Positions 2,174 through 62,808 of a stretch of DNA of 64,000 nt are shown here, piece after piece (position 1 is the stretch's first letter; each line of letters opens with the position of its first letter). The stretch spans positions 204,958 through 268,957 of the forward strand of contig JAUYKM010000009.1 in the NCBI GenBank assembly GCA_030699125.1, in the 5' to 3' direction. Origin of the DNA: Candidatus Daviesbacteria bacterium (GTDB lineage Bacteria > Patescibacteriota > Microgenomatia > Daviesbacterales > UBA10151). The notes below the pieces were generated by a model. That model was not told where the DNA came from. It made no database searches and saw only the letters and a list, made by a program, of their open reading frames with translations. The position numbers were made by a program, and so were the translations under genes.

Positions 2174-2174
2174 T

Positions 2175-3427: not shown

Positions 3428-3435
3428 ATATCCTG

Positions 3436-4296: not shown

Positions 4297-4326
4297 GGCT
4301 TAAAATTCCAATATGACTGATAATTA

Positions 4327-7420: not shown

Positions 7421-7471
7421 CTTTTTCTGATTCTAATTAGGTAATCTGTAATAGTCAAACCCTGAAAAGAG

Positions 7472-28919: not shown

Positions 28920-29244
28920 TAAATTGATTTTGAGCATAATTATTTTTATTATTTCATTACCAATTTTTATCTGGTTGGAATCCGGATTTGCCATTAAATC
29001 TGCTACTGATTTTGTAAAACCATTAATATTCTCAGCCTCTTTGGTAATCTCATCAGTAAGATTTTATAAACATTATCTTTTGATTATATCCTTGACTCTG
29101 CTATTTTTGATGGTTATTTTTTATCTTTTTTGGCAAATTCCTACTGCAGATTGGCTGGGTAGTGTTGGCATAGGGATGTTTACTATCTATATTATTGGAT
29201 ATTTACCAGAATTGATAAGAAAAGGGTATGTGGAAAAATTATGA
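28909..29244 (+). CDS. Small 4-TM membrane protein, paralog of the 25130 gene
   Basis: 111 aa with four hydrophobic helices. Its start overlaps the stop of giant paralog 3. Confidence 0.4.
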   Translation: MRVNKLILSIIIFIISLPIFIWLESGFAIKSATDFVKPLIFSASLVISSVRFYKHYLLIISLTLLFLMVIFYLFWQIPTADWLGSVGIGMFTIYIIGYLPELIRKGYVEKL

Positions 29245-32079: not shown

Positions 32080-33339
32080 ATGCTAAAATCCATACTTTCA
32101 ACTGCCACTTTCCGACAATCCCAAATAACTATTCTTGGAACACTGATAAATGGTGGGCTGGGAGCAGTTTTTTATATACTGCTGGCACGATATTTGGGTC
32201 CCGCGGACTTTGGACTTATTACAATTGCTCTAACTACAATGGTACTATTTTCAGATATTGCAGATATTGGAACCAACACCGGTCTAATCCGCTTTGTCTC
32301 TTCAAATTTAGGGCAAAACAGAGATAAAGCATATCGGTTTTTAAAATTAAGCCTAGAGATAAAACTGTTTGCCTGGGCAATATCTTTTTTAATTATTTTT
32401 TTTCTGGCGCCATTTTTGGCAACTCAACTTTTTCACAAAGCAGAGCTGATTTTGCCCTTAAGACTCACCGCTTTTGGAGTAGGAGGAGCACTTCTTTTTA
32501 CATTTGTTACATCTGCTTTACAAGCATATCAAAAATACTTCCTTTGGAGTATCATAAATATTTTTACCAACTCATTGAGATTAATTCTACTTATTATTTT
32601 AGGTTATTATCTTTTGCTTAATGTTGAAAGCAGTCTAATTGTTTATATTATTTTACCCTTTTTTGGTTTTTTTATCTCACTTTTTATCCTTCCTGCAAGA
32701 AAAATTCTTATAAGTAAAAATGAATTTAGTTTATCCGGAGAACTTTTTAAATATAATATTCCTGTTGCAATATTCACCGTGATTGCTGCCTTTTCGGCAA
32801 GACTGGATACTTATTTAAATGCGATTTTACTTTCCGCCAGAGACGTGGGAATTTATGGAGCAGCGAATAATCTGGTACAAATAATGCCACAACTGATTTC
32901 TGCATTGGGATTGGTTGCCGCACCTAAATTTGCCTCCTTTCAAAACAATACGCAGATGTTAACTTATTTTAAAAAATTCCAATTATTTGTCTTAGGGCTT
33001 TGTCTTTTGGGAATTTTAACTATCCCTCTTTCAACATATCTTATTCCCATACTTTTTGGCGGACAATATCAGGAGGCAGCTTTGCCATTTATATTTCTAT
33101 TTTTGGCAATGCTTATTTTCCTATTTTCTATTCCAGTACATCATAGCGTTATTTTTTATTTTGGCAGACCGGATGTTTTTATCTGGGTTTCAATAGGACA
33201 TCTATTAATAATTGGAGGAGTAGGATATTTTATGATCCAAAATTTTGGTGTCTTGGGCGCATCAATAACTGTACTAGTTGGGACGATCTTTAATTTTCTA
33301 TATCCTTTAATCTGGTTATTAATTAAACTTAAGAAATGA
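32080..33339 (+). CDS. Wzx-like oligosaccharide flippase / polysaccharide biosynthesis protein (MOP superfamily)
   Basis: 419 aa with ~12 TM helices. The N-terminal LGTLINGGLGAVFYILLARYLGPADFGL is typical of PST-family flippases. Confidence 0.65.
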   Translation: MLKSILSTATFRQSQITILGTLINGGLGAVFYILLARYLGPADFGLITIALTTMVLFSDIADIGTNTGLIRFVSSNLGQNRDKAYRFLKLSLEIKLFAWAISFLIIFFLAPFLATQLFHKAELILPLRLTAFGVGGALLFTFVTSALQAYQKYFLWSIINIFTNSLRLILLIILGYYLLLNVESSLIVYIILPFFGFFISLFILPARKILISKNEFSLSGELFKYNIPVAIFTVIAAFSARLDTYLNAILLSARDVGIYGAANNLVQIMPQLISALGLVAAPKFASFQNNTQMLTYFKKFQLFVLGLCLLGILTIPLSTYLIPILFGGQYQEAALPFIFLFLAMLIFLFSIPVHHSVIFYFGRPDVFIWVSIGHLLIIGGVGYFMIQNFGVLGASITVLVGTIFNFLYPLIWLLIKLKK

Positions 33340-34130
33340 AAATTTGGGTAAATACTATTGTTAATAATGAGGAAAACTTTATCTGGTTTGCAGTGATGTC
33401 TGTAGTGGATTATGTTGATAAAATTTTAATTTGGGATACTGGTTCAACTGATAGAACAGTTGAAATTATCAAGGAATTAATAAAGGTTAAGGGTAATAAG
33501 ATTTCATTTAAAGAAGTTGGCGAGGTGGATAAATATAAATTTTCCAAAATGAGACAAGAAATGCTGGAAGAAACTCAAAGTGACTGGATTTTGATTTTGG
33601 ATGGGGATGAAATTTGGTGGGAGGATTCTATAAAAAAATTAATTGATTTTATTAATAAAAATGGGAAGAATTATGAATCAGCAGTTACACCTTTCATAAA
33701 TGCCATAGGGGACATTTATCATTATCAAAGTGAAGAAGCGGGGAAGTATGAATTAATTGGCAAAAAGGGCCATTTAACAATTAGAGCCATGAGAAAAGAT
33801 ATTCCAGGGCTGCATGTTGGAGGTAGTTATGGAATCGAGGGATATTTGGACAAAGAGAATAATCCCATACAAAAAAGGGACCCTAGAAAAATAGCATTTA
33901 TTGATGCACCGTTTCTTCATTTAACCCACCTAAAGAGGAGTAGTATTGATATCCATCATAAATTCAAATATGAATTAGGACTTAAGTTTCCAAAGAATTT
34001 CCGTTATCCCCAAGTTCTTAAAAAGGATAGACCAGACATTGTTTTATCTCCCTTTAGCAAAAGAAATGTACTGTATGAAGTAATAGGTTTATTAAAATTT
34101 CCCTATTTGAGTTTAAAGAGAAATATTTAA
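33336..34130 (+). CDS. GT2 glycosyltransferase (DxGSxD type)
   Basis: 264 aa with ILIWDTGSTDRT and a DGDE acidic motif. It is a paralog of the 39259 gene. Confidence 0.65.
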   Translation: MKIWVNTIVNNEENFIWFAVMSVVDYVDKILIWDTGSTDRTVEIIKELIKVKGNKISFKEVGEVDKYKFSKMRQEMLEETQSDWILILDGDEIWWEDSIKKLIDFINKNGKNYESAVTPFINAIGDIYHYQSEEAGKYELIGKKGHLTIRAMRKDIPGLHVGGSYGIEGYLDKENNPIQKRDPRKIAFIDAPFLHLTHLKRSSIDIHHKFKYELGLKFPKNFRYPQVLKKDRPDIVLSPFSKRNVLYEVIGLLKFPYLSLKRNI

Positions 34131-34133
34131 AAG

Positions 34134-34790
34134 ATGAATAAAATAAAGAATTTTTATGATCAATTTTGGTCAGAAGATAAAGGGGAATTTGGAAGATATA
34201 TCAGGAATTCTTATCTGCCGCAATTTTTTAAAAAAGGGGAACTGGTTTTGGATGTGGGATGCGGAGATGGGGTGATTGCCGATTATTTACAAAGAAATGT
34301 CAATGTTAAGGTTATAGGTATTGATATTTCAGAAGAAGCCATCAAAAAGGCAAGAAACTTAGGGATTGAGGCGAAAGTTTTAAACAGCGAGGATAAATTT
34401 CCCTTTAAGGACAATACTTTTGACGCTGTTTTCTGGGGAGACAATATTGAACATCTTTTTAACCCTACCTCTTGCGCAAAAGAGATAAAAAGAGTCTTAA
34501 AAAAAGATGGCAGATTGATTTTATCTTGTCCTAATATGGGCTACTGGAGGTACAAAATTAAGTATTTAATTTCAGGGAGTTTAGCAGATACTGAATGGAC
34601 AGGACTCAAACCCTGGGAATGGTCGCATATCCGTTTTTTTAATCTTAAGATTTTGAAGGATTTTTTATTTTCTTGTGATTTTGAAAAAATTACAAAAGTG
34701 CTTGGTGTCAGTGAACGAAGACTGGATAAACCTTTTCTTGCAATTAACCCATCCTTTTTTGGAATGATTCTTATTTTGGAGGTAGTATGA
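34134..34790 (+). CDS. Class I SAM-dependent methyltransferase
   Basis: 218 aa. LDVGCGDGVIADYL is motif I. Confidence 0.7.
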   Translation: MNKIKNFYDQFWSEDKGEFGRYIRNSYLPQFFKKGELVLDVGCGDGVIADYLQRNVNVKVIGIDISEEAIKKARNLGIEAKVLNSEDKFPFKDNTFDAVFWGDNIEHLFNPTSCAKEIKRVLKKDGRLILSCPNMGYWRYKIKYLISGSLADTEWTGLKPWEWSHIRFFNLKILKDFLFSCDFEKITKVLGVSERRLDKPFLAINPSFFGMILILEVV

Positions 34791-35470
34791 GCGCCGGTAC
34801 ACAAACGTTAGAAAGTATGAGTCAGGCGGTTTGGTATAACAGATGGACTCTGGATAAATTTAAGAAATATTTGAAAGGTGATATTCTGGAGGTGGGTTGC
34901 GGTATCGGAAATTTTACAGATAGTCTTAATGAATATGGTGAGATATATGCTATTGATATAGACAATAGTTATATTAATAAGGTTAAGGAACTGGTTTATG
35001 GTAGAGCTGGATTTGGAGATATAGAGACTGGCGAATATTTTTTTAAGGATAAAAAGTTCGATACTATTGTTTGTCTTAATGTATTAGAACATATTCAAAA
35101 GGATGAGGTGGCGGTTAAGAATTTATATAAACTTTTGAAGGATGAGGGTCACTTAATTTTACTTGTTCCGGTGCATCCATTTATGTTTGGGAAAATTGAT
35201 GAATCCATTGGTCATTTCAGAAGATATACCAAAGAGAAAATAATTCAAGAGATAAATGATGCTGGATTTAAAATAATTTTATCGAGGAAATTAAACTTTT
35301 TAGGTGCCATTGGCTGGTGGTTAGCTCAGAAAGTTTTTAAAGAAAAAACCATCAAAGAAAGTAATATTCAAATATTTAATATTCTTGCCCCACTGGTTTT
35401 ACCGCTGGAAGATATCATAGAACCTCCGCTTGGTACATCAATTCTGGTAATTGCTCAAAAAAAATTATGA
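34787..35470 (+). CDS. Class I SAM-dependent methyltransferase
   Basis: 227 aa. LEVGCGIGNFTDSL is motif I. Confidence 0.7.
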   Translation: MSAGTQTLESMSQAVWYNRWTLDKFKKYLKGDILEVGCGIGNFTDSLNEYGEIYAIDIDNSYINKVKELVYGRAGFGDIETGEYFFKDKKFDTIVCLNVLEHIQKDEVAVKNLYKLLKDEGHLILLVPVHPFMFGKIDESIGHFRRYTKEKIIQEINDAGFKIILSRKLNFLGAIGWWLAQKVFKEKTIKESNIQIFNILAPLVLPLEDIIEPPLGTSILVIAQKKL

Positions 35471-36198
35471 TCCTCACCATCATCATCCCAGTCTTTAATG
35501 AGGAAAAAACAATCGAAAGACTTTTAAAAAAGGTTGTGGAGGTTAATTTGCCTAAGGGTATCAAAAAAGAAATTATTGTTATTGATGATGGATCAACCGA
35601 TAAAACTCAAAAAGTTTTATCGGAAATTCGAAATTCCCGCTTCGCGAGGCGAGCGAAATTCGAAATTCGAGTTTTAGGACATGATAAGAATAAAGGAAAG
35701 GGTACAGCAATAAGAACTGGATTAAAGTATGCCGAAGGAGATTACATAATCATTCAGGATGCGGATCTAGAGTATGATCCAAATGATTACAATACTCTTC
35801 TAGAACTAGTCATCTCTAAGAAAGCTCAAGTGGTTTATGGAACAAGACTGATAAATTATCCTTTTAAGATTTTGGGCAAAAACAAAACTGTGATGCCTAT
35901 TCATCTATTGGCCAATAAATTCTTAACAACTTTCACAAATTTATTATATGGAAGTAAACTAACTGATATGGAAACTTGTTATAAACTTATTAAAAGCGAC
36001 ATTTTTAAAAAAATTACATTAAAAGCTAATCGGTTTGATTTTGAACCGGAAGTGACAGCAAAAATATTAAAACTAAAGATTCCAATAGTTGAGGTCTCGA
36101 TTAGTGTTAAGCCAAGGACATACAAAGAAGGTAAAAAAATTGGATGGCTGGATGGATTAGTAGCGATCTGGATTCTATTAAAGCATAAATTTAGTTAA
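35467..36198 (+). CDS. GT2 polyprenyl-phosphate sugar synthase (DPM1/Ppm1/GtrB-like) carrying an in-frame GC-rich mini-insertion
   Basis: 243 aa with IIIPVFNEEKTI, IVIDDGSTDKT, NKGKGTA and IIIQDADLEYDP, the hallmarks of the dolichyl/undecaprenyl-phosphate glycosyltransferase family. Confidence 0.75.
   Translation: MILTIIIPVFNEEKTIERLLKKVVEVNLPKGIKKEIIVIDDGSTDKTQKVLSEIRNSRFARRAKFEIRVLGHDKNKGKGTAIRTGLKYAEGDYIIIQDADLEYDPNDYNTLLELVISKKAQVVYGTRLINYPFKILGKNKTVMPIHLLANKFLTTFTNLLYGSKLTDMETCYKLIKSDIFKKITLKANRFDFEPEVTAKILKLKIPIVEVSISVKPRTYKEGKKIGWLDGLVAIWILLKHKFS
35623..35668. repeat. GC-rich 18-nt core flanked on each side by two GAAATTC heptamers; in-frame insertion within the GT2 gene
   Basis: The sequence reads GAAATTC GAAATTC CCGCTTCGCGAGGCGAGC GAAATTC GAAATTC and encodes ...EIRNSRFARRAKFEIR... 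Removing 33 nt (core plus one heptamer pair) restores a family-typical ...EIRNSVLGHDKNKGKG. Confidence 0.5.
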
Positions 36199-36201
36199 AA
36201 A

Positions 36202-37140
36202 ATGAAAATATTATTCTTAAGTAGATATCAAAATAAAAATAAAAGGGGAGCAGAAAGTTTTGTCACAGAACTATCTAAAAAATTAGCTAAAAATCATCAG
36301 GTTTCTATTTTTTCAGAATCTGATTCAGATTCGTTGTCAAAAATTTTACAAGGAAAGTATGATATGGTAATTCCCATCAATGGTAGGTTGCAGGCATTAA
36401 AAGCATCAGTGGGAAGACTAATGGGAGGATATAAACTTTTGATATCAGGTCATAGCGGCATTGGTCGGGATGATATCTGGAATATTGCAGTGGTTAGGCC
36501 TAATGTCTTTGTGGCCCTGACGGAGTTTCAAAAAGAATGGGCCAAAAAATTTAGCTGGGGAACTAAACTAACAAAAATTACTGATGGGGTAGATATAAAA
36601 AAATTTACGCCGGTGGGGGAAAAAATCGAACTTAATCTTGAACACCCAATTATTTTATCGGTGGGAGCACTGGAATGGTACAAATATCATAAACGGGTTA
36701 TTGAAGCCGTTTCCAAAATAGCGGATGTATCGTTATTGGTGGTGGGGGAGGGGAGTATGAAAAAAGAACTATCTGAATTAGGAGATAAACTTTTGGGAAA
36801 AAGATTTAGAATTAAAAATTTTGACTATCAGGATATGCCAATGGTTTATAGAAGTTGTGATTTATTTACCCTACCTTCTTGGGAGAGAGAAGCTTTTGGA
36901 ATTGTTTATCTTGAGGCCATGGCCTCAGGCTTGGGGGTGGTAGCTTCGGATGATTCACCAAGACATGAAATTGTAGGGGATAGTGGAATATTTGTGGATG
37001 TGACCAATCTTCAAAAATATGCAACAGCAATTGAAGAAGCTCTCAAAATTGACTGGAAATCCAAAGCAAAAAAGCAAGCAGAAAAATTTTCCTGGGATAA
37101 AATTGCCGATCAATATAATCAAATTTTAAAATATTTATGA
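36202..37140 (+). CDS. GT4 (GT-B fold) glycosyltransferase
   Basis: 312 aa with the C-terminal EAFGIVYLEAMASGLGVVASD motif. Confidence 0.75.
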   Translation: MKILFLSRYQNKNKRGAESFVTELSKKLAKNHQVSIFSESDSDSLSKILQGKYDMVIPINGRLQALKASVGRLMGGYKLLISGHSGIGRDDIWNIAVVRPNVFVALTEFQKEWAKKFSWGTKLTKITDGVDIKKFTPVGEKIELNLEHPIILSVGALEWYKYHKRVIEAVSKIADVSLLVVGEGSMKKELSELGDKLLGKRFRIKNFDYQDMPMVYRSCDLFTLPSWEREAFGIVYLEAMASGLGVVASDDSPRHEIVGDSGIFVDVTNLQKYATAIEEALKIDWKSKAKKQAEKFSWDKIADQYNQILKYL

Positions 37141-38504
37141 AAGAATCCTTAGGTGTCTACCTAACACACACCTGGTGTGTACAATTATTTATTGGTGGAT
37201 GTTTATTTGTCTCATCAATATTTTTAATTGGTCAAAATTTGGACAAGCCTTTTTGGGGAGAGCATGACTGGAATGGAGTCCGCTACGGCAATATTGCCAG
37301 AAATTACCTAAGGTATGGATTTTTGGAAACAAAATTTGGCCAGGTGGAAAACAGTGGATATTATACTCACTACCCTCCCCTTCTGCCGATATTAATCTCC
37401 ATAAGTTATAAATTATTTGGGATTTTTGAGTGGTCAACCAGACTGATACCGCTTTTGGCTACCTCAGGTATTGTGGTCATGTTATATTTAATTGGTTCTT
37501 TAGTTTGGAATATTAAAACGGGGATATTGGCATCACTTCTGGCTTTAGCAACACCAACAGCTTTGTACTTTGGAAAAAATCCAGTACATGAACCAGTGGT
37601 GTTATTTTTTATTCTTCTATCTTTTTATGGATATTTTAAAAAATATCCCCCCCTTTTTTTAGTAGGGCTAGTATTAGCAGAGATAACAGCATGGGCAGGA
37701 TATTTCATCTTACCTGCTATAACTATTGCATTGGTTTTAGGAAAGGATTGGTCTAGTGTAAAAAGACTCTTACCATATTGGATTTTATCTATAACATTAT
37801 TCTCTTTCCACTTTGTTCATGTGGCAATTCTGACAGGATCAATTTATGGAGGAGATTTGATTAACTCACTACTCCAACGAAGTGGGGTTTTATCCACAGC
37901 GCAGCCGCAGGAATTTACTTTTTTAGGTTATCTAGATAGATTGAGGATCTGGTTTAGTATCCAGTTTAGCCTAACGCTCACTCTACTTACTCTAGTCTGG
38001 TTATATCTTAATCGGACCGGGGTAAGAACTAAATATTGGCCAATTACTACTTTGGGGCTAGTAGGTCTAATCTATTTGATGGTCTTCTCTAATTCAGTCT
38101 TTATCCATAATTATTTAACCTTTTACTTTTTACCCTTTTTATCACTGGCAGGATCTGCAATGATTCTTCATTTAAGGAAATTTAAAATTTTTAAAAAAAT
38201 AAGTTTAATTTTGCCTGTTTTATTTCTAATTATAGTTTTCCTTGAAAGAAATGGTTATCTTAAGGCGCTCAATGAAAGTAATAGAGACAAATTAGCGGTG
38301 GAAATTGGACAGTCAATTAAGGAACAAACCACAGATGATGATGTTATTTTAATCTCTCCTTTGAAATATTCATATTCTGCAGATAATTTTTTAGAATTTT
38401 ATTCAGATAGAAAACTTATTTATTCGGATGATGTGACTGCCGATTATGACGTTTTAGTTTTAGTAGATCATGAAAGAGGGAAATTTGAGATAATTAGAGA
38501 ATGA
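37137..38504 (+). CDS. GT-C glycosyltransferase, PMT/ArnT-like (GT39/GT83-like) polytopic membrane protein
   Basis: 455 aa with ~10-11 TM helices. The first extracytoplasmic loop carries an acidic motif (FWGEHDWNGVRYGNIARNY). Confidence 0.55.
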   Translation: MKESLGVYLTHTWCVQLFIGGCLFVSSIFLIGQNLDKPFWGEHDWNGVRYGNIARNYLRYGFLETKFGQVENSGYYTHYPPLLPILISISYKLFGIFEWSTRLIPLLATSGIVVMLYLIGSLVWNIKTGILASLLALATPTALYFGKNPVHEPVVLFFILLSFYGYFKKYPPLFLVGLVLAEITAWAGYFILPAITIALVLGKDWSSVKRLLPYWILSITLFSFHFVHVAILTGSIYGGDLINSLLQRSGVLSTAQPQEFTFLGYLDRLRIWFSIQFSLTLTLLTLVWLYLNRTGVRTKYWPITTLGLVGLIYLMVFSNSVFIHNYLTFYFLPFLSLAGSAMILHLRKFKIFKKISLILPVLFLIIVFLERNGYLKALNESNRDKLAVEIGQSIKEQTTDDDVILISPLKYSYSADNFLEFYSDRKLIYSDDVTADYDVLVLVDHERGKFEIIRE

Positions 38505-39262
38505 AACTTGATGTAGGTTCTTTTTATGACGATACGGAAAGATTGAAATACAATCCGGAAGGTTCCTTTAAGAAAAGAGGCTTTCTAAAAAGACTGGTAG
38601 CTTTTGATGACAGATTTGTAACTGTTAAAAAGGAATTAGAAGAATTAATCGGACAAAAATCAACTATTTTGGTAAAGATTTTAGATATTGGGGTAGGTGA
38701 TGGTATATATGAAGCAATTTTGGATGAAAGAATAAGAAAAAAATGTGAAATTTATGGAATTGACATAAGTGAAGGACAACTTAAGAGGGCTAAAAGATTC
38801 TTAAAAGAAGTCAAAGAGGTGGACCTAAATACTGAAAAGATCCCCTATCCCGAAAACTCATTTGATATTGTTATTGCTTCGGAAATTTTGGAACATGTGT
38901 TTTACCCTGAAAAAATTTTGCAGGAAGCAGAACGGGTTCTAAAAAAGGAAGGATATATGTTAATTACTATTCCCAACAGTGCTTGTCTGCAACTTAGAAT
39001 GGCGATTCTCTTAACCGGTCATTCTACCCTATTAAATTATCCGACAAATAGGGAGCATATCAGATTTTTTACCTCTAATGATATTAAAAAGATGATTAGC
39101 TCAAAATTAGAAGTAATTAAAGTGCTAGGCTTAAGTTCTTTTTTGTTGGATAAATGGAATTTCTTTATCAGGATTCCCATACCAAGAATAATACAAATTA
39201 CTGGCAATAGATTTCTTCCCAGTTTGGCTTTAGGTAATATGATAATAATAAAGAAAAAATGA
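38501..39262 (+). CDS. Class I SAM-dependent methyltransferase
   Basis: 253 aa. ILDIGVGDGIYEA is motif I. Confidence 0.7.
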   Translation: MKLDVGSFYDDTERLKYNPEGSFKKRGFLKRLVAFDDRFVTVKKELEELIGQKSTILVKILDIGVGDGIYEAILDERIRKKCEIYGIDISEGQLKRAKRFLKEVKEVDLNTEKIPYPENSFDIVIASEILEHVFYPEKILQEAERVLKKEGYMLITIPNSACLQLRMAILLTGHSTLLNYPTNREHIRFFTSNDIKKMISSKLEVIKVLGLSSFLLDKWNFFIRIPIPRIIQITGNRFLPSLALGNMIIIKKK

Positions 39263-39996
39263 TTACAGCAACTATTATTACACTAAATGAGGAAGAACAA
39301 ATTGGTAACGCTTTAAAAAGCCTGCAAAGGATAGCAGATGAGATAATCATAGCTGATTCCGGGAGCGTCGATAAGACTGTTGAGATTGCCAAAAAATTTG
39401 GAGCTAAAGTATTTTTTAGGAAATTTGACAATTTTGCCAGTCAAAAAAATTGGGCTGCCTCAAAAGCAAAAGGAAACTGGATTTTATCACTTGATGCTGA
39501 TGAAGAGGTTCCAGAAGAGTTGGCAGAGGAAATCAGGAATGCCGTCAAAACAAAACAATATGAAGGTTTTCTAATTGGCAGGAGAAATTTTATCTTGGGA
39601 AAGGAAATAAAATATTCCCGATGGAGCCCGGATAACCATATCTGGTTATGGAAAAAGGATAAGGGAAAATGGGTGGGAGATGTCCATGAGGAAGTATTAA
39701 TAGAGGGTAGAGTCGGACAGCTTAAAAATAAAAAAATTCACCATTCTCACAAGAGCGTTGGTGAATTTATCAAATCAAATGACCGATACTCTTCTTTAGA
39801 AGCTCAATCTTTACATTCCGAAGGAGTGAAGTTTTCCTTCTGGAAAATGATTTGGTTTGCAAAATTCGAATTCTTGTTAAGGTTTATTTACAAGTTGGGT
39901 TTTTTGGATGGATTAAGAGGTTTTATTCTATGTTATCTGATGGCAATCTATAAGCTGACAGTCTGGATTAAATTATGGGAACTTCAGAAAAAATGA
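39259..39996 (+). CDS. GT2 glycosyltransferase (DxGSxD type), paralog of the 33336 gene
   Basis: 245 aa with IIIADSGSVDKT and LSLDADEE. Confidence 0.65.
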   Translation: MITATIITLNEEEQIGNALKSLQRIADEIIIADSGSVDKTVEIAKKFGAKVFFRKFDNFASQKNWAASKAKGNWILSLDADEEVPEELAEEIRNAVKTKQYEGFLIGRRNFILGKEIKYSRWSPDNHIWLWKKDKGKWVGDVHEEVLIEGRVGQLKNKKIHHSHKSVGEFIKSNDRYSSLEAQSLHSEGVKFSFWKMIWFAKFEFLLRFIYKLGFLDGLRGFILCYLMAIYKLTVWIKLWELQKK

Positions 39997-41420
39997 TTTG
40001 GCTGATTCTATTTTTGGCAGCCTTATTAAGGTTAATTTCATTGGATCAAAGTTTGTGGTTGGATGAGGCAATTAATGTTTTGGCTGCCAAAAACTATTCC
40101 CTTCTGGGGATAGTAACAGAATATGCTAAAGGGGATTTTCATCCACCCGGATACTTCATAGTTTTGTGGGTTTGGACAAAAATATTTGGTTATACAGAGA
40201 TTGCTGTTAGATTGCCTTCTATAATTTTTGGAATTTTAACAATCTGGATCACCTTTTTGATTGGGCAGAAAATACACTCCAAGAGTTTAGGATTCATAGC
40301 AGCCCTTTTTTTGGCAGTTAACCCGCTACATATTTATTATTCTCAGGAGGCCAGGATGTATTCTTTAGCTGCTTTGGTAGTTAGCATAAATATGCTATTT
40401 TTTTTAAATCTAGTTAAGGGGGAAAAGAGTAATGGGAGGAATTTGGGTTTTTATATATTAAGCAATCTGTTAGTTTTGGTCTCGGATTATGTTTCCTACT
40501 TAATTTTTCCTGCTCAGTTAGCCTTTTTTTTAATTGGCCACCGAACTCGGTTTTTAAAAAAATGGTTAATTGTTTTACTTTTAAGTTTAGGTATTTTTTC
40601 CATTTGGCTGCCGATATTTATGAATCAATTACAGGCTGGACTGGCAGTGTCTTCCAGTATCCCGGCATGGAAAGAGGTGGTGGGGTCTTTTGGTCTAAAA
40701 CCTTTGATTTTAACTTATGTTAAATTTATTATTGGCAGAATTGATCATCCTGATCCATTAATTTATGGTTCATTATTTTTAATCCCCGGACTACTGTTCC
40801 TTTTTTTGATGTGGAGAGGAATAAGATTTGCCTCTGATTTTAACAAAAAATTATTGTCTGTATGGCTGATCATACCAATAGTATCGGCATTACTGATTTC
40901 GCTGACAGTTCCAATTTACAGTTATTTCAGATTACTCTTTATATTGCCATCTTTCATGATGCTAATTTCTTTAGGTGTTTTATCATTTAAGCCAAAATTC
41001 AGAAATTTCCTGATTATTCCGACAATTTTAGTAGAAGTTATTGCTGCAACTATTTATCTGTTTAACTCTCAATTTCAAAGAGAAGACTGGAAGGGTCTGG
41101 TTAGTTTTTTAGGAGCAAAAGGAGACAGTCATGTTTTATTGGAAAGTACAGGTTTATTTGCGCCATTTGAATATTATTCGGAGAATAGAATTGAAGCTGA
41201 TGGGGCTTTGAAAGAATTTCCAGCTGAAATTATTTCGAATGTCTCAAATCTTGAGTTTTTAGATGGGAAGAAAGATGTCTATTTGGTTGATTATTTAGTG
41301 GAGATAAGTGATCCTAAGAGGTTGGTCAGTCAGAAACTTATGGAATTAGGATACCAGAAGTTAGATATTAAAAATTTTAGTGGAGTGGGATTTGTTTATC
41401 ATTATTTCAAAAATGAATAA
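39975..41420 (+). CDS. GT-C glycosyltransferase, PMT/ArnT-like (dolichyl-phosphate-mannose-protein mannosyltransferase family)
   Basis: 481 aa and polytopic. The loop-1 motif SLWLDEAINVLAAKNY is a DE motif typical of GT39/GT83. Confidence 0.6.
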   Translation: MGTSEKMIWLILFLAALLRLISLDQSLWLDEAINVLAAKNYSLLGIVTEYAKGDFHPPGYFIVLWVWTKIFGYTEIAVRLPSIIFGILTIWITFLIGQKIHSKSLGFIAALFLAVNPLHIYYSQEARMYSLAALVVSINMLFFLNLVKGEKSNGRNLGFYILSNLLVLVSDYVSYLIFPAQLAFFLIGHRTRFLKKWLIVLLLSLGIFSIWLPIFMNQLQAGLAVSSSIPAWKEVVGSFGLKPLILTYVKFIIGRIDHPDPLIYGSLFLIPGLLFLFLMWRGIRFASDFNKKLLSVWLIIPIVSALLISLTVPIYSYFRLLFILPSFMMLISLGVLSFKPKFRNFLIIPTILVEVIAATIYLFNSQFQREDWKGLVSFLGAKGDSHVLLESTGLFAPFEYYSENRIEADGALKEFPAEIISNVSNLEFLDGKKDVYLVDYLVEISDPKRLVSQKLMELGYQKLDIKNFSGVGFVYHYFKNE

Positions 41421-42759
41421 GTTAACATTAATAATCTTGGGAATTATTCTAGTATTACATGTTTTTATTTTAACGAAGTTGATTTTTTTTCCATATCCTG
41501 AACAATTTATCTATCCCTACCTTGTTAATAGTGGCTTAAAGCCTTACAGCCAGATTTTAGATCAACATTTTCCCGGGCTAATGCTTTTGCCCATTAATTT
41601 TAATAATTTAGGAATGACAACTCCTGATATTGCCAGGATTTGGCTGATCTCTGTTGTGTTATTAACTCAATTATTGTTGTTTTTTGTATCGGGAAAAATT
41701 TTACAGGATGATAAAAAAGCCCTACTTGTTAATATTTTATATTTAATCTGGCAGCCTTTTTTTGAAGGGTGGGTACTTTGGGTTGATTCTTTTTTACCGC
41801 TAATGCTTTTGCCTGCAGCATATTTTTTGCATAAACAAAAGTATGGTTTATTAGGTTTACTGTTAGGTCTGGTTATTATTTTTAAACAGGTCATGATTCC
41901 TCTTGGTGCAATAATTGCTCTTTATATTTTTTGGGAAAATAAGAAATTAACAAATGTTAAAAATTATTTATTAGGATTGAGTGTTCCGCTATCTTTAATG
42001 GTTATCTATTTAATTAGTATAGAGGTTTTTAAGGACTTTTTATTTTGGACAATTACTTTTAATCTAACAACCTATGCTCAATTAGGACGTGGAGCAGGAC
42101 CTACACTAGCTCATCTTTTCAGAGCAGTGTTAGTCTTTGGTACGCCATTTATTATTTTGTTAAAGATTAAAGAAAGAACCTCTCAGATATTATTGATTTT
42201 CCTCATTGGCAGTTTAATGGGACTTTTCACCAGGTTTGATTTTGTGCACTTTCAGCCAGCTTTACCCTTTGCACTTATTGGTACAGTGATGGGATTTTCA
42301 GTCATTTTCAAAAACTTGGGTGGTAAAGTGTTAATTTTATTATACATTTTAGTATTAGTATGGTGGCTAAATATTTTTTATCAGGGACATATTTCAAATC
42401 AGGTTTTATTCTTTGATAAGAATACTTATGAAGTAGCAGAAAAAATTATGCAGTATACTGATCCCGGAGATAAAATTTTTATTTTAGGAAGTCCGCTGCA
42501 TCTTTATCAGATGACTCAAACTCTACCGGCAGGAGATATATTTGTTTTTCAATTCCCTTGGTTTTTACAAGTGACCCAAAGTCAGATACTAGATGGAATT
42601 AAAGAAGATCAGCCTGAAATTACGGTAGTAGATAGATCAGTGGAAATAGAGGATAAGAGATTGACAGATTTTGCCAGTGAGATTAATAAGTATTTGCAGG
42701 AGAACTATATTAAAATAGATATGGTGGGGACAGCAGAAATATTAAAAAGAAAAATATGA
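41380..42759 (+). CDS. Polytopic membrane protein of unknown function (possible GT-C-like)
   Basis: 459-aa ORF. The likely true start is MNKLTLIIL near 41413. It has about 11 hydrophobic helices and a C-terminal soluble ~90 aa. Confidence 0.4.
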   Translation: MEWDLFIIISKMNKLTLIILGIILVLHVFILTKLIFFPYPEQFIYPYLVNSGLKPYSQILDQHFPGLMLLPINFNNLGMTTPDIARIWLISVVLLTQLLLFFVSGKILQDDKKALLVNILYLIWQPFFEGWVLWVDSFLPLMLLPAAYFLHKQKYGLLGLLLGLVIIFKQVMIPLGAIIALYIFWENKKLTNVKNYLLGLSVPLSLMVIYLISIEVFKDFLFWTITFNLTTYAQLGRGAGPTLAHLFRAVLVFGTPFIILLKIKERTSQILLIFLIGSLMGLFTRFDFVHFQPALPFALIGTVMGFSVIFKNLGGKVLILLYILVLVWWLNIFYQGHISNQVLFFDKNTYEVAEKIMQYTDPGDKIFILGSPLHLYQMTQTLPAGDIFVFQFPWFLQVTQSQILDGIKEDQPEITVVDRSVEIEDKRLTDFASEINKYLQENYIKIDMVGTAEILKRKI

Positions 42760-43784
42760 AAAATATCAGAGTGGGAATGGACATATCTCAAGTAGCTCAC
42801 AGGGGAGGGGTGGCAATTTATACTCAGAATCTCTCTCAAGAACTTTCCAAAAATAAAGGTTTGGAGATGGCGTATTTTTATTCATCTTTAAGAAAATCTT
42901 ATCATGGTCATTTAAAAAATATTAAGAAATACAGGCTTCCGCCTACTTTTTTTGAAATGCTTTTTAACAGATGGAGAAACGTATCTATTGAGCGATTTTT
43001 AGGACCCTTAGATATTTTTCACTCATCAGATTGGACTCAGCCGCCATCTAAGGCCAAAAAAGTGACAACATATCATGATTTGGTGCCTATAAAATATCCC
43101 CAGTGGTCACATCCTAAAATTGTATCTGTTCACAAAAGAAGACTCTATCTAATAGAGCAAGAGATAGATCATGTAATTTGTGTCTCAGAATCTGCCAAGA
43201 ATGATTTGATGGAGGTTTCATCTATCCCTGAGAAAAAAATTACGGTAATTTATGAGGCGCCAACCTCCGAATTTAAAATCCAGCCAAAAGATAAAATTGA
43301 AGCGTTTAAAAAGAAATATAATTTGCCCGAAAAATTTGTCTTGGCAATTGGGGGAGTGGGAGAAAGAAGAAATTTGGCGAGAATTAAAGAAGCTTGCAAA
43401 GATTATCATCTGGTAATTTCCGGATATGATATTCCCCATCTGGAGGATTTAGGGGAGTTGGAGCTACTTTACAACTGTGCTCAGGCATTAGTGTATTGTT
43501 CGCTATATGAGGGTTTTGGGTTGCCAATTTTAGATGGATTTGCCTGTGGTTTGCCGGTTGTAACCTCAAACGTCTCTGCCATGCCGGAGATTGGTGGAGA
43601 GGCTGCCACTTATGCAGACCCATATAATATAGAAGATATGACAATAAAATTAAGATCGGTTTTGGAAGATGAGGATATGAGGAATATTATGATAAAAAAA
43701 GGATTGGAGAGAGTTAAACAATTTTCCTGGAAAAAATGTGCAAAAGAAACAGCAGAAGTTTATAAAAAATTAATGAAGTCATGA
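42756..43784 (+). CDS. GT4 (GT-B fold) glycosyltransferase
   Basis: 342 aa with the LYEGFGLPILDGFACGLPVVTSN motif. Confidence 0.75.
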   Translation: MKNIRVGMDISQVAHRGGVAIYTQNLSQELSKNKGLEMAYFYSSLRKSYHGHLKNIKKYRLPPTFFEMLFNRWRNVSIERFLGPLDIFHSSDWTQPPSKAKKVTTYHDLVPIKYPQWSHPKIVSVHKRRLYLIEQEIDHVICVSESAKNDLMEVSSIPEKKITVIYEAPTSEFKIQPKDKIEAFKKKYNLPEKFVLAIGGVGERRNLARIKEACKDYHLVISGYDIPHLEDLGELELLYNCAQALVYCSLYEGFGLPILDGFACGLPVVTSNVSAMPEIGGEAATYADPYNIEDMTIKLRSVLEDEDMRNIMIKKGLERVKQFSWKKCAKETAEVYKKLMKS

Positions 43785-44908
43785 AGATAGCCATAGACGG
43801 TTATGAAGCTAATGTTTTACAAAGGTTGGGCTCATCACAGGTGGCTTTTGAATTAATCAAAAACCTCGAAAAAATTGATAGAAAGAATGATTACACTATT
43901 CTTTTACCGTCTGCTCCGATGGAGGATTTTCCCAAAGAACGTCAGGGATGGAAATATAAAATTCTAAAACCCAAGATGCTTTGGACCAGGATAGCTTTAC
44001 CCTTGTTTCTATATACATCCAGACAAAAGGTTGATTTGATCTTTTCCCCAACACACTATATTCCCAGATTTTCTTCAGTAAAAAGAGTAGTAACAATATT
44101 TGATTTATCTTTTTTACATTTTCCCGAAAGTTTTCTTAAAAAAGATCTTTGGCAGCTTAAAAATTGGACCAAGTTTTCCGCCCAGGAGGCTGATCATATC
44201 ATCACCATCTCCAATTTTTCCAAAAAGGATATTATCAAACAATATGGAGTAAGCTCTGAAAAAATAACAATAGCATATCCCGGTTTTAATAAAGATATTT
44301 TTAAACCAATAAAAGATAAAGAAAAAAAAGAAAAGATAATTAAAGAATATGGATTAGGAGATTCCTTCCTTATATATATAGGGACAATACAGCCTAGGAA
44401 AAATCTGGTTAGACTTATGGAGGCAATTGCTAGAATTGAGAATTTACAGCTAGTGATTGTGGGAAAAACCAGAGATAAGGGTAAGTCCGGCTGGATGTTT
44501 GATAAAATTTTACAAACTCCTAAAAATTTAGGTATTGAGGAAAGGGTAAAATTTACAGGATTTGTTAAAAGTGAAGACTTGCCCTATCTTATTTCAGGAG
44601 CGAAGGCTTTTATTTTACCTTCTCTTTGGGAGGGATTTGGCATTCCGGTACTAGAAGCTATGGCTTGTGGTGTGCCAACTCTTATATCTAATAACTCATC
44701 GCTTCCCGAAATAACAGGTAAAGGAGGAATAAAATTTGATCCATATTCAGTTGATCAGATTGAGCAGGCAATCAGAACTATTATCAGCGATAAAAAGTTG
44801 TGGCAAAAATATTCTAAAGAGGCTTTGATCCAGTCAAAAAAATATTCCTGGAAAAAAATGGCCAGAGAAGTTAAGAGGGTATTTGAGATAGTTGGAGAAA
44901 TAGCCTAA
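43781..44908 (+). CDS. GT4 (GT-B fold) glycosyltransferase
   Basis: 375 aa with the LWEGFGIPVLEAMACGVPTLISN motif. Confidence 0.75.
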   Translation: MKIAIDGYEANVLQRLGSSQVAFELIKNLEKIDRKNDYTILLPSAPMEDFPKERQGWKYKILKPKMLWTRIALPLFLYTSRQKVDLIFSPTHYIPRFSSVKRVVTIFDLSFLHFPESFLKKDLWQLKNWTKFSAQEADHIITISNFSKKDIIKQYGVSSEKITIAYPGFNKDIFKPIKDKEKKEKIIKEYGLGDSFLIYIGTIQPRKNLVRLMEAIARIENLQLVIVGKTRDKGKSGWMFDKILQTPKNLGIEERVKFTGFVKSEDLPYLISGAKAFILPSLWEGFGIPVLEAMACGVPTLISNNSSLPEITGKGGIKFDPYSVDQIEQAIRTIISDKKLWQKYSKEALIQSKKYSWKKMAREVKRVFEIVGEIA

Positions 44909-44931
44909 AGATAGGTATAATAGATCTATCT

Positions 44932-45534
44932 ATGGCTATATTTCATAATCGGATGGGTCAAGAACTATCTGGGAGGCAAGCATCATCCAAGATTGCCAAC
45001 CGTCTCTATAATTATCTGGCTGATTTTGCCCTTTTTTGTATACAAGTGCTTTCGTATATTCCCTCTCACCATATTCGGAGATTTCTATACAGATTGGCTG
45101 GTGCAAAGATTGGTCAAGGCAGCACGATACATATGGGCTGTAGTTTTTTTTCTTTAAAAAAAGTGAGTATTGGAGAAGATAGCCTGATAGGACGAGGTAC
45201 TTTTTTGGATGGCAGAGCCCCCCTAAAGATTGGTGACCATGTAGATATTGCCTCAGAGGTGATGATTTATAATAGTGAGCATAATATTAATTCCGATGAC
45301 TTTCATGCCACACTTGCCCCAGTTGAAATAGAAGACTATGTATTTATTGGTCCCAGAGCCATCATTTTACCTAATGTAAGGATTGACAAAGGAGCTGTAG
45401 TGGCAGCAGGAGCTGTTGTGACAAAAGATGTTAATGAGTTCGTCATAGTAGGTGGAGTACCGGCAGAGGTGATTGGTGAGAGGAAACTGAAAGATCCAAA
45501 GTACAGATTAGGAAGGGCACGATTGTTTCAGTAG
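44932..45534 (+). CDS. Hexapeptide-repeat acetyltransferase (WcaF/CapG-like polysaccharide O-acetyltransferase)
   Basis: 200 aa with the tandem hexapeptides IGEDSLIGRGTFLDGRAPLKIGDHVDIASEVMIY and IGPRAIILPNVRIDKGAVVAAGAVV. Confidence 0.7.
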   Translation: MAIFHNRMGQELSGRQASSKIANRLYNYLADFALFCIQVLSYIPSHHIRRFLYRLAGAKIGQGSTIHMGCSFFSLKKVSIGEDSLIGRGTFLDGRAPLKIGDHVDIASEVMIYNSEHNINSDDFHATLAPVEIEDYVFIGPRAIILPNVRIDKGAVVAAGAVVTKDVNEFVIVGGVPAEVIGERKLKDPKYRLGRARLFQ

Positions 45535-45613: not shown

Positions 45614-46225
45614 TTGAGACTTGCATTCGCAAGAGATTCTTCGCTAATCGCTCAGAATGACAAAAAAGATATGAAATATTCTTTTATCATTTTTTCTCTA
45701 CTACTTCTAATTTATATGCTCTGGCCCGGGCCCACGAAAATTTCCGATTCCCCCCCTCTTCCAAATTCTGATAAATCCACTCTGGAAGGTGATACTATCC
45801 AAATACCAAACGTCTCAGCATATTTTTCCAACAATTTTAGGGATTTTGCTACCAGCTTTTATCGAAATCATTACCAGAACTCATCTCATTTTCCTTTCCC
45901 ACCACTCACGCTGAATCATCCTCCGGAATATTCCTGGATTGCCATAAAAAGGCACACGGATACCACCTATTTGGAAGAATTTGCTTACCCTCTTAGGGAT
46001 TCCTTGTATGTGAACGGTTTGGAGCCATTTTATGAAGACGGTTCACCTAAATTTTGGGGTGCCACTATGTTTGAGATTGGTCCTGCAAATTTCTTTACTA
46101 AGGTAACATTAAGATTTTATCCGTCAAATATTCTAGTCAGAATTATCGTTTGGTTAGGTGTAGTGGTGTCTATCTGGTTACTTTTTAAATTAGGCAAGCA
46201 AATTGTTTTGCAAAAATATGAGTAG
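45614..46225 (+). CDS. Hypothetical membrane-anchored protein
   Basis: 203-aa ORF. The probable start is at 45671 (MKYSFIIFSLLLLIYMLWPGP), which gives one N-terminal TM and a C-terminal TM. There is no recognisable family. Confidence 0.4.
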   Translation: MRLAFARDSSLIAQNDKKDMKYSFIIFSLLLLIYMLWPGPTKISDSPPLPNSDKSTLEGDTIQIPNVSAYFSNNFRDFATSFYRNHYQNSSHFPFPPLTLNHPPEYSWIAIKRHTDTTYLEEFAYPLRDSLYVNGLEPFYEDGSPKFWGATMFEIGPANFFTKVTLRFYPSNILVRIIVWLGVVVSIWLLFKLGKQIVLQKYE

Positions 46226-47654
46226 ACTCTTATCCATTTATAGTAAATCATTATTTATTCTAGCTGCATTTTTATTTGCTTTTATTCCTCTTTATCCCAA
46301 GTTCCCTTTTTTAAATATTGCAGGAACTTTTGTAGCAGTAAGATTGGAAGATATTCTGATTGCTTTTTTGGCCGTATCTTGGGCAATTTATATTGTTATC
46401 TCTAATAAATTGAGAGATCTCCTCAAAGATAGACTAGCTCAAGTTTTGTTGCTTTTTTTCTTTATTGGGGCTGTCTCTTTAATTTCAGGCATATTTTTAA
46501 CTCATAGCGTCTCAGGGAGTATTGGTTTACTACATCTTTTAAGAAGGGTTGAATATATGATTCTTTTGCCAATTGTGGCCACCCTTATTCAAACTAAGAA
46601 ACAATTTATAATGATTCTAATAACATTGGGGGCTGTTTTGCTAGCAGTGAACTTATATGCTTTAGGCCAGCAATTCTTAGATTGGCCGGTTATCTCTACC
46701 ACCAATTCTGAATTCTCCAAGGGATTGATTTTAAGACTGACTCCTGGAGCGAGGGTCAACTCCACTTTTGCAGGACATTATGATTTGGCGGCATTTTTGG
46801 CAATGGCATTATGTCTACTTAGTGCACTTTTCTTTGCTGTTAATAAAAGGATAAAAATAGTGGTAATTTTATTGTTTGGGAGCTCCCTTTTAGTACTGGT
46901 TATGAGTGCTGCCAGAGTTTCATTTATGGCGGCATTCTTTGGAATAATTGCTGCTCTAATCTTTTCTAAGAAAAAGAAGTATTTAATTTTCATATTCATT
47001 GCATCTTTATTGATCTTACTTTATCCCTCTCAATTAAGGGATAGATTTATTTCAACTATCACTATAAATATTTTAAATTTGGGCCAAAGATATGAAGGAC
47101 AAACGCAAGACCAGCACATCAGAAGCAAACTTAATATACCCACATTGGCAATTAAAACTTCCTCCCGGTCAGCAGAATCTTCAACTTTTGCTTCGCCCTC
47201 GGGTTCCACAGCCACAGATATTACTCCGGGTGAACCGCTAGATACCACACAGCTCGGGGTTTATAGATCTTTTCAAATTAGGCTAAATATTGAATGGCCC
47301 AGAGCCGTAAGAGCGTTTATTAAAAATCCGCTTTTGGGAACTGGCTACTCCTCAATTGATATAGCAACGGATAATGATATTTTAAGATCGTTAGGGGAGG
47401 TGGGATTGTTAGGAACTTTTGCCTTAGGACTAGTATTTATAGAGGTTGGTAAAAGGATCCACTGCTGTTTTAGAGATGAATCCAAATTAATTAAATATTT
47501 TTCTGCAGGCGTGTTAGCTATCATGATTGCCTTTTTGATAAATAGTTTATTCATAGATGTATTGGAAGCTTCAAAAGTAGCCACTCTTTTCTGGATGATA
47601 TTAGGTTTAAACTTGGCAGTATTGTCATTCCCGCGTATGCGGGAATCCAATTAA
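46203..47654 (+). CDS. Wzy_C-type O-antigen ligase/polymerase-like polytopic membrane protein
   Basis: 483 aa with ~12 TM helices. RAVRAFIKNPLLGTGYSS resembles the conserved O-antigen-ligase loop motif. It carries an S/T-rich, GC-rich insert at ~47150-47260. The last 7 codons are contributed by a GC hairpin. Confidence 0.55.
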   Translation: MFCKNMSRLLSIYSKSLFILAAFLFAFIPLYPKFPFLNIAGTFVAVRLEDILIAFLAVSWAIYIVISNKLRDLLKDRLAQVLLLFFFIGAVSLISGIFLTHSVSGSIGLLHLLRRVEYMILLPIVATLIQTKKQFIMILITLGAVLLAVNLYALGQQFLDWPVISTTNSEFSKGLILRLTPGARVNSTFAGHYDLAAFLAMALCLLSALFFAVNKRIKIVVILLFGSSLLVLVMSAARVSFMAAFFGIIAALIFSKKKKYLIFIFIASLLILLYPSQLRDRFISTITINILNLGQRYEGQTQDQHIRSKLNIPTLAIKTSSRSAESSTFASPSGSTATDITPGEPLDTTQLGVYRSFQIRLNIEWPRAVRAFIKNPLLGTGYSSIDIATDNDILRSLGEVGLLGTFALGLVFIEVGKRIHCCFRDESKLIKYFSAGVLAIMIAFLINSLFIDVLEASKVATLFWMILGLNLAVLSFPRMRESN

Positions 47655-47695
47655 TAATATTTGTTAAATGGATCCCTGCCTTCGCAGGGATGACA
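47623..47695. repeat. Inverted pair of GC-rich hairpin units (TGTCAT-TCCCGC-GTAT-GCGGGA-ATCCA ... TGGAT-CCCTGC-CTTC-GCAGGG-ATGACA)
   Basis: Two units lie in opposite orientation, separated by a 19-nt AT spacer. The outer TGTCAT/ATGACA and ATCCA/TGGAT arms are complementary, and each unit carries its own 6-bp GC stem. The pair overlaps the stop of the 46203 gene and the annotated 5' end of the 47668 gene. Confidence 0.55.
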
Positions 47696-52567: not shown

Positions 52568-52573
52568 TTACAT

Positions 52574-53207: not shown

Positions 53208-53208
53208 T

Positions 53209-62757: not shown

Positions 62758-62808
62758 CAAACTACCTACGGCCGTGATAATCTTGAAATATGTATAAAAA
62801 GAAGAGTT
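62758..62808. repeat. Direct repeat copy 1 (about 50 bp, contains the ACGGCCGT palindrome and the start of the PaaX-like gene)
   Basis: AAACTACCTACGGCCGTGATAATCTTGAAATATGTATAAAAAGAAGAGTT is ~80% identical to copy 2 at 63296-63346. Confidence 0.6.

Follow-up and report, generated by a model that had tools for sequence, protein, structure and literature searches.

Candidate phyla radiation (CPR) bacteria, or Patescibacteria, are uncultivated, their genomes are minimal and they spend their lives attached to other cells, which makes surface chemistry central to their biology. A stretch of 64 000 nt from Candidatus Daviesbacteria, a member of the Microgenomates group of CPR (assembly GCA_030699125.1, contig JAUYKM010000009.1, positions 204 958 to 268 957; hereafter the window) raises the question of what such a bacterium glycosylates outside its membrane. 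It encodes a DPM1-like glycosyltransferase of family 2 (GT2; 35467–36198) and, close to it, polytopic glycosyltransferases of the GT-C type (37137–38504, 39975–41420 and 47668–49173). A reading made from the letters and open reading frames (ORFs) of the window (the sequence-only reading) had taken these genes as a candidate protein O-mannosylation-type system, pairing Ppm1 with Pmt, with ArnC plus ArnT as the alternative. All four of its coordinate pairs coincide exactly with plus-strand ORFs, which are referred to below by their start coordinates.

The answer favoured here, which is held to be reasonably probable, is that 35467 makes a polyprenyl-phosphate sugar, that this sugar is flipped across the membrane and that it then serves PMT_2-type GT-C enzymes as donor for decorating or extending an envelope glycopolymer specified by the surrounding Wzx/Wzy-type genes. 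Extracytoplasmic transfer from a lipid-linked monosaccharide, as proposed in the sequence-only reading, agrees with sequence, fold, topology and gene neighbourhood; its headline of protein O-mannosylation is not supported.

The DPM1-like GT2 and its association with GT-C genes

The gene at 35467–36198 (+) encodes a soluble or peripheral GT2 of 243 aa (PF00535, E=5e-34) with no predicted transmembrane helix. Its motifs comprise DDGSTD (residues 41–46), QDADLEYDP with D98 and D100, DMETCYK (167–173) and PRTYKEGKKIG (216–226), and D98-A-D100, the DxD of the GT-A fold, is invariant in 21 homologs. The closest solved relatives are polyprenyl-phosphate glycosyltransferases, namely GtrB (5EKP), Pyrococcus DPMS (5MLZ) and ArnC. 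Positions 1–231 of the 21-member family profile align with residues 23–248 of DPMS 5MLZ (E=5e-21), covering the whole catalytic domain, and these matches bear out the DPM1-like label. The C-terminal PRTYKEGKK aligns opposite R..GESK of DPMS, where we take the R..G.SK segment to be an acceptor-side segment. AglJ is the top NCBIfam match and, like PpgS, aligns over the full length; PgfS is among the matches. The neighbouring GT2s 33336 and 39259, used as a control, match GmaR and SunS and not polyprenyl-phosphate glycosyltransferases. Orthologs of 35467 share 60–67 % identity in Microgenomates and 43–52 % in many phyla. By its relatives, 35467 is probably a polyprenyl-phosphate hexose synthase of the DPM1/Ppm1/GacI type, with a lipid phosphate as the likely acceptor. 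Its lack of transmembrane helices fits that subtype, which needs a membrane partner; no such partner was found here.

To describe the neighbourhood of this gene beyond Microgenomates, 80 loci from other phyla with orthologs of 35467 were collected, and a hidden Markov model for PMT_2-type proteins was built and iterated on them. Of these loci, 21 had a PMT_2-like ORF no more than 300 bp from the GT2 ortholog and 28 had one no more than 5 kb away; a YfhO GT-C was found in six further loci. Ten PMT_2-like neighbours were tested, of which nine matched PF13231 and eight exceeded its gathering score. Up to 2 kb from the GT2, PMT_2-like ORFs numbered 10.3 per 100 kb, compared with 1.1–3.0 at a distance of 2–10 kb, a 4- to 9-fold difference.

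Within Microgenomates, the gene order around 35467 recurs in independent contigs (L001–L007 and L090) with protein identities of 52–68 %. The first part of this order consists of an AftD-like gene, a small transmembrane protein, Wzx, a GT2, one or more methyltransferases, the DPM1-like GT2 and a glycosyltransferase of family 4 (GT4). It continues with a 37137-like GT-C and a methyltransferase, both optional, and then a GT2, a GT-C, a GT-C-like gene, two GT4s, an acetyltransferase, a protein of ~180 aa and Wzy_C. The optional insertion corresponds to 37137 and 38501 in the window; 37137 is missing in L001 and L007 and present in L088 and L090. The core GT-C conserved throughout the Microgenomates block is 39975. 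Because gene order recurs in Microgenomates and PMT_2-like ORFs are denser near GT2 orthologs elsewhere, the co-location of GT2 and GT-C genes is not due to chance. The adjacency of PMT_2 and YfhO genes to orthologs of the GT2 across phyla is, as guilt by association, strong evidence for its role in supplying GT-C enzymes.

Several features of the cross-phylum loci stand apart from this result. Six or seven tandem PMT_2 paralogs lie directly 3' of the GT2 ortholog in metagenome-assembled genomes of a gammaproteobacterium (L012:10933-20647) and a member of the Patescibacteria (L073:10725-20573). Polytopic proteins with no Pfam match and an acidic ESDAKGY motif after the first transmembrane helix (L044:1448-2833 and relatives in L032, L043, L046, L069 and L087) recur beside GT2 orthologs in Bacteroidota loci, and by these features may represent an unclassified GT-C family. 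One neighbour cluster from high-GC Acidimicrobiia loci was discarded as consisting of spurious antisense ORFs.

PMT_2-type GT-C enzymes and their likely acceptor

The three polytopic candidates with acidic residues in the first loop proved to be of the GT-C(A) type and the PMT_2 superfamily, two of them with scores above the PF13231 gathering score and one, 37137, below it. The acids are retained in orthologs of all three. The highest in profile score is 39975 (39975–41420, +; 481 aa), which matches PF13231 with E=9.5e-14 and 52.3 bits against a cut-off of 26.1. Its AlphaFold2 model (predicted local distance difference test score 86) has the GT-C(A) fold with ~11 transmembrane helices and the N-terminus inside; D30-E31, in the first outside loop, is invariant in 25 homologs, and a C-terminal alpha/beta domain of 118 aa lies outside. 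Topology was assigned from the helices of the model and from lysine and arginine counts, a crude hydropathy predictor being unreliable for helix counts. The loops derived from the model carry 14 lysine or arginine residues in 42 inside positions versus 8 in 116 outside positions, from which the DE motif, like the C-terminal domain of 118 residues, is predicted to face outward.

A second clear member is 47668 (47668–49173, +; 501 aa; PF13231 E=1.7e-12, 48.3 bits versus 26.1). The conserved motif DWHSWRQADT follows its first transmembrane helix; D48, R53 and Q54 are conserved in the family, with D56 accompanying D48, and 3152 cluster representatives match the family at E≤1e-3. Its listed start probably overshoots: a better one is at MNIFKIL, after the N-terminal sequence MDPCLRRDDTIIE.

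The third, 37137 (37137–38504, +; 455 aa), is a divergent PMT_2-type GT-C(A) enzyme that reaches E=3e-4 and 21.4 bits with PF13231, below the gathering score of 26.1. H43-D44-W45-N46 is invariant after the first transmembrane helix in the family alignment. Most of its 156 homologs carry PF13231 and a few carry PF02366. In the AlphaFold2 model (score 91) the top Foldseek match is ArnT 5F15 (E=1.2e-7, template modelling score 0.63), and hhalign relates the 37137 family to the 47668 family over the full length with 99.8 % probability. Through its homologs and modelled fold, 37137 thus qualifies as a PMT_2 GT-C(A) enzyme.

A fourth GT-C, missed by the sequence-only reading, is probably encoded at 41380–42759 (+), always after the ortholog of 39975. 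This polytopic protein of 459 aa has no Pfam match in its window version, and its assignment to PMT_2 comes via orthologs and hhalign only: an ortholog in L007 (49 % identical) carries PF13231, one in L088 carries it weakly, and hhalign gives a weak link to the 47668 family (70 % probability, E=4e-5) and none to the 39975 family. The first loop contains E41, D61 and H63, all three invariant in the family alignment. The listed start of 41380 is a GTG within a 41-nt overlap with the previous gene; MNKLTL lies 12 codons in, and the true start is probably a few codons downstream.

Neither sequence nor profile searches of the 37137, 39975 and 47668 families against the PDB gave a match at E≤1, and because of this fold searches were needed. 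These rank STT3/PglB (template modelling scores 0.5–0.6) about level with ArnT, Pmt4 and ALG12, because the shared GT-C(A) core alone is matched. The WWDxG motif of oligosaccharyltransferases is absent from all GT-Cs of the window, and neither refuting condition named in the sequence-only reading, loss of the first-loop acid among orthologs or a better match to ligase families, arose. In the two modelled enzymes, 39975 and 37137, the C-termini form soluble alpha/beta domains of 70–140 residues.

The placement of these enzymes in the GT39/Pmt family was not borne out: for 37137, 39975, 41380 and 47668, PF02366 is not among the matches at E≤0.01 and PF16192 gives no match. Assignment to ArnT fared no better. 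No ArnT model in NCBIfam matches, the resemblance to ArnT exists at fold level only, and of the Arn genes only DegT-like and ArnC-like ones were seen in the window, with no ArnA, ArnD or ArnE/F. CPR bacteria are regarded as monoderm and as lacking lipid A.

These results bear on whether the system glycosylates proteins. The 35467 protein could make polyprenyl-phosphate-mannose or another polyprenyl-phosphate hexose, from which one or more PMT_2 enzymes would modify Ser/Thr of secreted, S-layer or pilin proteins, as in Ppm1 plus Pmt of Actinobacteria or PgfS/PgfM of Streptococcus mutans. PMT_2 and PMT belong to the same GT-C(A) clan, D30-E31 of 39975 is the hallmark DE motif (PMC8698208), PF02366 does occur in a few homologs of 37137, NCBI labels 39975 a 'GT family 39' protein and PgfS is among the profiles that 35467 matches. 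However, the DE pair is found only in 39975, with 37137 (H43-D44) and 47668 (D48) having a single conserved acid each, and an acidic or DE motif in the first loop is common to all GT-C(A) enzymes and hence not specific to Pmt (PMC8698208). The family profiles retrieve no Pmt or ArnT sequences from the PDB. The GT-C paralogs number four or more rather than one and lie within a Wzx/Wzy-type glycan cluster, with which they share conserved synteny, and relatives are fused to a Wzy_C-like protein and to a Leloir GT2. In addition, the targets of many PMT_2 enzymes in Gram-positive bacteria are teichoic acids or wall polysaccharides, which they decorate (PMC8035078). Protein O-glycosylation is accordingly judged unlikely as the role of this locus.

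The fusions point instead to glycan assembly. Immediately upstream of 47668 lies 46203 (46203–47654, +), a Wzy_C-like polytopic protein of 483 aa that falls just under the PF04932 cut-off (E=3e-7, 30.7 versus 31.7 bits) and may act as a glycan polymerase, ligase or O-oligosaccharyltransferase-type enzyme in partnership with 47668. In other metagenomic organisms, a Wzy_C-like part and a PMT_2 part are joined in single proteins of 800–1045 aa (P0362, P0375 and P0380), and the N-terminal halves of P0375 (1035 aa, E=2e-48) and P0380 (1045 aa, E=6e-54) match 46203 along its entire length. A further protein, P0370, joins a WbbL-like GT2 to a PMT_2 domain. Because such Wzy_C-like/PMT_2 and GT2/PMT_2 fusions exist, 47668 appears to be functionally tied to 46203 and to the assembly of a glycan polymer.

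In the favoured model, 35467 would work at the cytoplasmic face of the membrane, using a nucleotide sugar to load polyprenyl phosphate with a single sugar, as do DPM1, Ppm1, GacI and GtrB. The polyprenyl-phosphate sugar would be flipped by the Wzx/MOP-family protein 32080 or by another protein, since no GtrA-type flippase is detectable. This Wzx gene (32080–33339, +; PF01943 E=5e-23) keeps its position in L001, L007, L088 and L090, and is, by analogy with the proposal for GacK, a candidate flippase for the repeat unit, the polyprenyl-phosphate sugar or both. Outside the membrane, 39975, 41380, 37137 and 47668 would take the polyprenyl-phosphate sugar as donor, and the AftD-like enzymes of the cluster may do so too. 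The likely acceptor is a glycopolymer, rather than a protein or lipid, whose repeat unit would be primed by Bac_transf, built by GT4 and GT2 enzymes, methylated and acetylated, then exported by Wzx and polymerized or ligated by the Wzy_C-like 46203. Within the conserved core, 37137 and the methyltransferase 38501 would form a variable decoration module. The synthase candidate, the GT-Cs, the polymer genes and a Wzx-type flippase all lie in one cluster.

Organization of the glycan cluster and alternative readings

The run of glycan genes extends from 8325 to 55099 on the plus strand (~47 kb) and is operon-like, with co-directional and often overlapping ORFs; the G+C content of the window is ~33 %. 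Besides the Wzx flippase, the Wzy_C-like protein and a Bac_transf priming phosphoglycosyl transferase, it encodes glycosyltransferases (nine GT4s, further GT2s and three AftD-like GT-Cs, these last also overlooked in the sequence-only reading), at least eight methyltransferases, an acetyltransferase, a UDP-sugar dehydrogenase and a DUF4012 protein. A scan for promoters and terminators performed no better than on shuffled sequence, and no tRNA genes or Rfam families were found in the window.

Around the DPM1-like GT2, the genes at 33336–35470 (+), members of the conserved block by synteny, encode a GmaR/SunS-like GT2 of 264 aa followed by two S-adenosylmethionine (SAM) methyltransferases and presumably act on cytoplasmic steps and sugar methylation. 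A GT4 (36202–37140, +; PF00534 E=1e-28) always stands immediately 3' of the DPM1-like GT2 in the syntenic contigs. An accessory SAM methyltransferase (38501–39262, +) follows 37137, and next comes a GT2 of 245 aa with a C-terminal hydrophobic segment (39259–39996, +), which is always immediately 5' of the 39975-type GT-C. Its best PDB matches are GmaR (E=1.7e-19) and SunS, i.e. protein or peptide glycosyltransferases, and it is 50 % identical to L088:8451-9176. Downstream of 41380, the block continues with two GT4s and a hexapeptide acetyltransferase (42756–45534, +) in the same order as in L007, L088 and L090. The cluster ends at 49192–55099 (+) with three GT4s, the Bac_transf priming phosphoglycosyl transferase (52449–53207) and the DUF4012 membrane protein (53153–55099), which has 648 aa and one N-terminal transmembrane helix and directly follows the priming transferase. 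The ORFs 52449 and 53153 overlap their 5' genes by 119 and 55 nt, and their listed starts probably overshoot. No ligase of the LCP family was seen in the window.

The upstream half of the cluster (8325–32061, +) comprises the three AftD-like GT-Cs, an 889-aa polytopic protein (29392), the UDP-sugar dehydrogenase, a GT4, GT2s and methyltransferases. The AftD-like paralogs (8325–11045, 21633–25133 and 25458–28919) are 900–1170 aa long, have a GGGD/GGGEE motif after the first transmembrane helix and match AftD Pfam families weakly, below the gathering score. Two of the three are each followed by one of two paralogous proteins of ~111 aa (25130–25468 and 28909–29244) that have 3–4 transmembrane helices and belong to no Pfam family. 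Because this pairing with an AftD-like gene recurs in L001 and L090, it suggests that the small protein is an accessory subunit of the AftD-like GT-C. A gene for NadE, a glutamine-dependent NAD synthetase (11026–12693), sits within the glycan cluster and overlaps the end of the AftD-like gene 8325–11045.

Divergently transcribed from the AftD-like gene 8325 is a modified-sugar operon (1046–8308, −) that encodes an NTP transferase, an NDP-sugar dehydratase/epimerase, a sugar C-methyltransferase, two other methyltransferases, a DegT aminotransferase, a hexapeptide acyltransferase and a second DPMS/ArnC-like GT2 (2717–3427, −), likewise absent from the sequence-only reading. Over its entire length this second GT2 matches DPMS (E=1.5e-13) and ArnC, and its best NCBIfam model is ArnC PRK10714. 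Judged by its gene content, the operon looks like Arn-style loading of an N-acylated amino-deoxy sugar onto polyprenyl phosphate.

The region 3' of the cluster holds housekeeping genes for RecO, a class II aminoacyl-tRNA synthetase, MraZ, RsmH/MraW and a penicillin-binding protein. Also outside the cluster, a protein of 166 aa with a PaaX central (Cas2-like) domain (62790–63290) lies beside a short-chain dehydrogenase.

The number of GT-Cs raises the possibility that they build the polymer rather than decorate it. PMT_2-type and AftD-like enzymes would then assemble most of the chain outside the membrane from polyprenyl-phosphate sugars, on a short primer made in the cytoplasm, as in mycobacterial lipomannan/lipoarabinomannan and arabinogalactan. 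The cluster does combine seven or eight GT-Cs, three of them AftD-like, with two DPMS-like GT2s; the conservation of the core, in identity and in order, is unusually high for a surface-antigen locus; and the tandem PMT_2 arrays of L012 and L073 stand beside a GT2 ortholog. However, a classical repeat-unit pathway needs no more than the nine GT4s, the Wzx flippase and the Wzy_C-like protein present, the sequences show no readable feature of processivity, and UbiA/DprE-type genes for a pentofuranose donor were not seen in the window. A chain-building role for the GT-Cs therefore seems doubtful. Put more broadly, and as a tentative suggestion, Microgenomates may possess a vertically conserved envelope-glycan assembly line of ~50 kb, in which two DPM1-like synthases feed seven or eight GT-Cs, among them the AftD-like giants and the Wzy_C/PMT_2 pair known elsewhere as a fusion, and most of a major methylated wall polymer is built outside the membrane in a mycobacterium-like manner. 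If so, this assembly line would occupy several percent of a genome of ~1 Mb, and its polymer could be the principal surface structure of these episymbiotic ultra-small bacteria.

Against the favoured model, that 35467 charges polyprenyl phosphate for the PMT_2-type GT-Cs, stand several observations. Fold searches cannot distinguish glycan, protein and lipid acceptors. A Pfam scan at E≤1 of the small or unassigned membrane ORFs gave no match to GtrA, GacJ/DUF2304 or another flippase family, and a dedicated GtrA-type flippase was not found. The 35467 protein scores far under all NCBIfam equivalog cut-offs (AglJ 99 versus 325 bits, ArnC 55 versus 529, PpgS 47 versus 370) and does not have the C-terminal transmembrane helices of the GtrB/ArnC/CsbB subtype. 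The Woesebacteria contig L088 has no DPM1-like GT2 inside its block, and the invariable GT2 neighbour of 39975 is the GmaR/SunS-like 39259, not 35467. The wide margin to all curated polyprenyl-phosphate glycosyltransferase models, the lack of any transmembrane helix, the strict adjacency of 39259 to 39975 and the L088 block would also suit an ordinary Leloir GT2 adding a sugar to a polyprenyl-pyrophosphate-linked repeat unit, with the GT-C donor coming from 39259 or 2717–3427 or with the GT-Cs acting on pyrophosphate-linked oligosaccharides. This is very unlikely, given the full-length similarity of 35467 to DPMS, which extends to the C-terminal R..G.(S/K)K segment, its top PDB matches, which unlike those of 33336 and 39259 are polyprenyl-phosphate glycosyltransferases, the strong adjacency of its orthologs to PMT_2 and YfhO genes across phyla, and the similar lack of transmembrane helices in DPM1, Ppm1 and GacI (PMC8035078).

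Comparison with known systems

The mechanism itself is already well known from multi-component transmembrane glycosylation systems, and literature searches for GT-C systems in CPR bacteria or Microgenomates found nothing relevant. For bacterial glycobiology the locus offers an annotation and a lead rather than a new principle. The GT2 35467, the GT-Cs 39975 and 41380, and the Wzy_C-like 46203 with GT-C 47668 form a conserved and testable set that probably makes or decorates the main envelope glycan, and the adjacency of GT2 and PMT_2 genes across phyla is a usable genomic marker of extracytoplasmic glycosylation in many uncultured lineages.

Compared with ArnC/ArnT (GT83), the locus shares a GT2 polyprenyl-phosphate-sugar synthase and a PMT_2-type GT-C with an Asp in the first loop. 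The top Foldseek match of 37137 is ArnT, and the operon at 1046–8308 pairs a DegT aminotransferase with an ArnC-like GT2. The systems differ in that neither an ArnT NCBIfam match nor the remaining Arn genes are found here, and the setting differs as well, lipid A not being expected in a monoderm CPR cell.

The three-component systems for pentofuranose side chains (GT136; Kelly et al. 2024) resemble the proposed system in glycosylating a polymer outside the membrane after polymerization, in having a GT-C(A) enzyme whose C-terminal domain is extracytoplasmic and in using a flippase of the MOP superfamily (PMC11127046). Their donor synthase, however, is a UbiA-like phosphoribosyltransferase and not a GT2, and their GT-C belongs to another family (PMC11127046).

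Actinobacterial Ppm1 serves several GT-Cs (PMC5882110, PMC5982138), namely Pmt, PimE and MptA/B, with AftD and Emb using decaprenylphosphoryl arabinose. Common to that arrangement and the present one are a soluble DPM1-like synthase without transmembrane helices, many GT-Cs per envelope-glycan pathway, AftD-like giants with large outside domains and cytoplasmic GT4s (PMC5882110, PMC5982138). In contrast to the actinobacterial systems, neither a Pmt with PF02366/PF16192 nor a Ppm2/Lnt partner was seen here, nor were UbiA/DprE genes for an arabinose donor, and the AftD Pfam matches are below threshold; the Wzx/Wzy_C/Bac_transf framework of the cluster is not part of the mycobacterial pathways.

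Rismondo et al. (PMC8035078) reviewed multi-component transmembrane glycosylation systems, which include CsbB-GtcA-YfhO, CsdAB/CD/EF and GtrABV; the closest match among them is GacI/GacJ/GacK/GacL, which adds the GlcNAc side chain of the group A carbohydrate in Streptococcus pyogenes. It differs from the present locus in several respects: no GacJ/DUF2304 or GtrA homolog is found here, one GT2 would apparently serve four or more GT-Cs, the host is a CPR bacterium, and identity to characterized members is too low for profile matches. The design proposed here is the same, with a GT-A enzyme that loads polyprenyl phosphate, a Wzx-type flippase in the locus and a PMT-2 GT-C (GacL) that glycosylates a wall polysaccharide outside the membrane, all encoded inside a polysaccharide cluster (PMC8035078).

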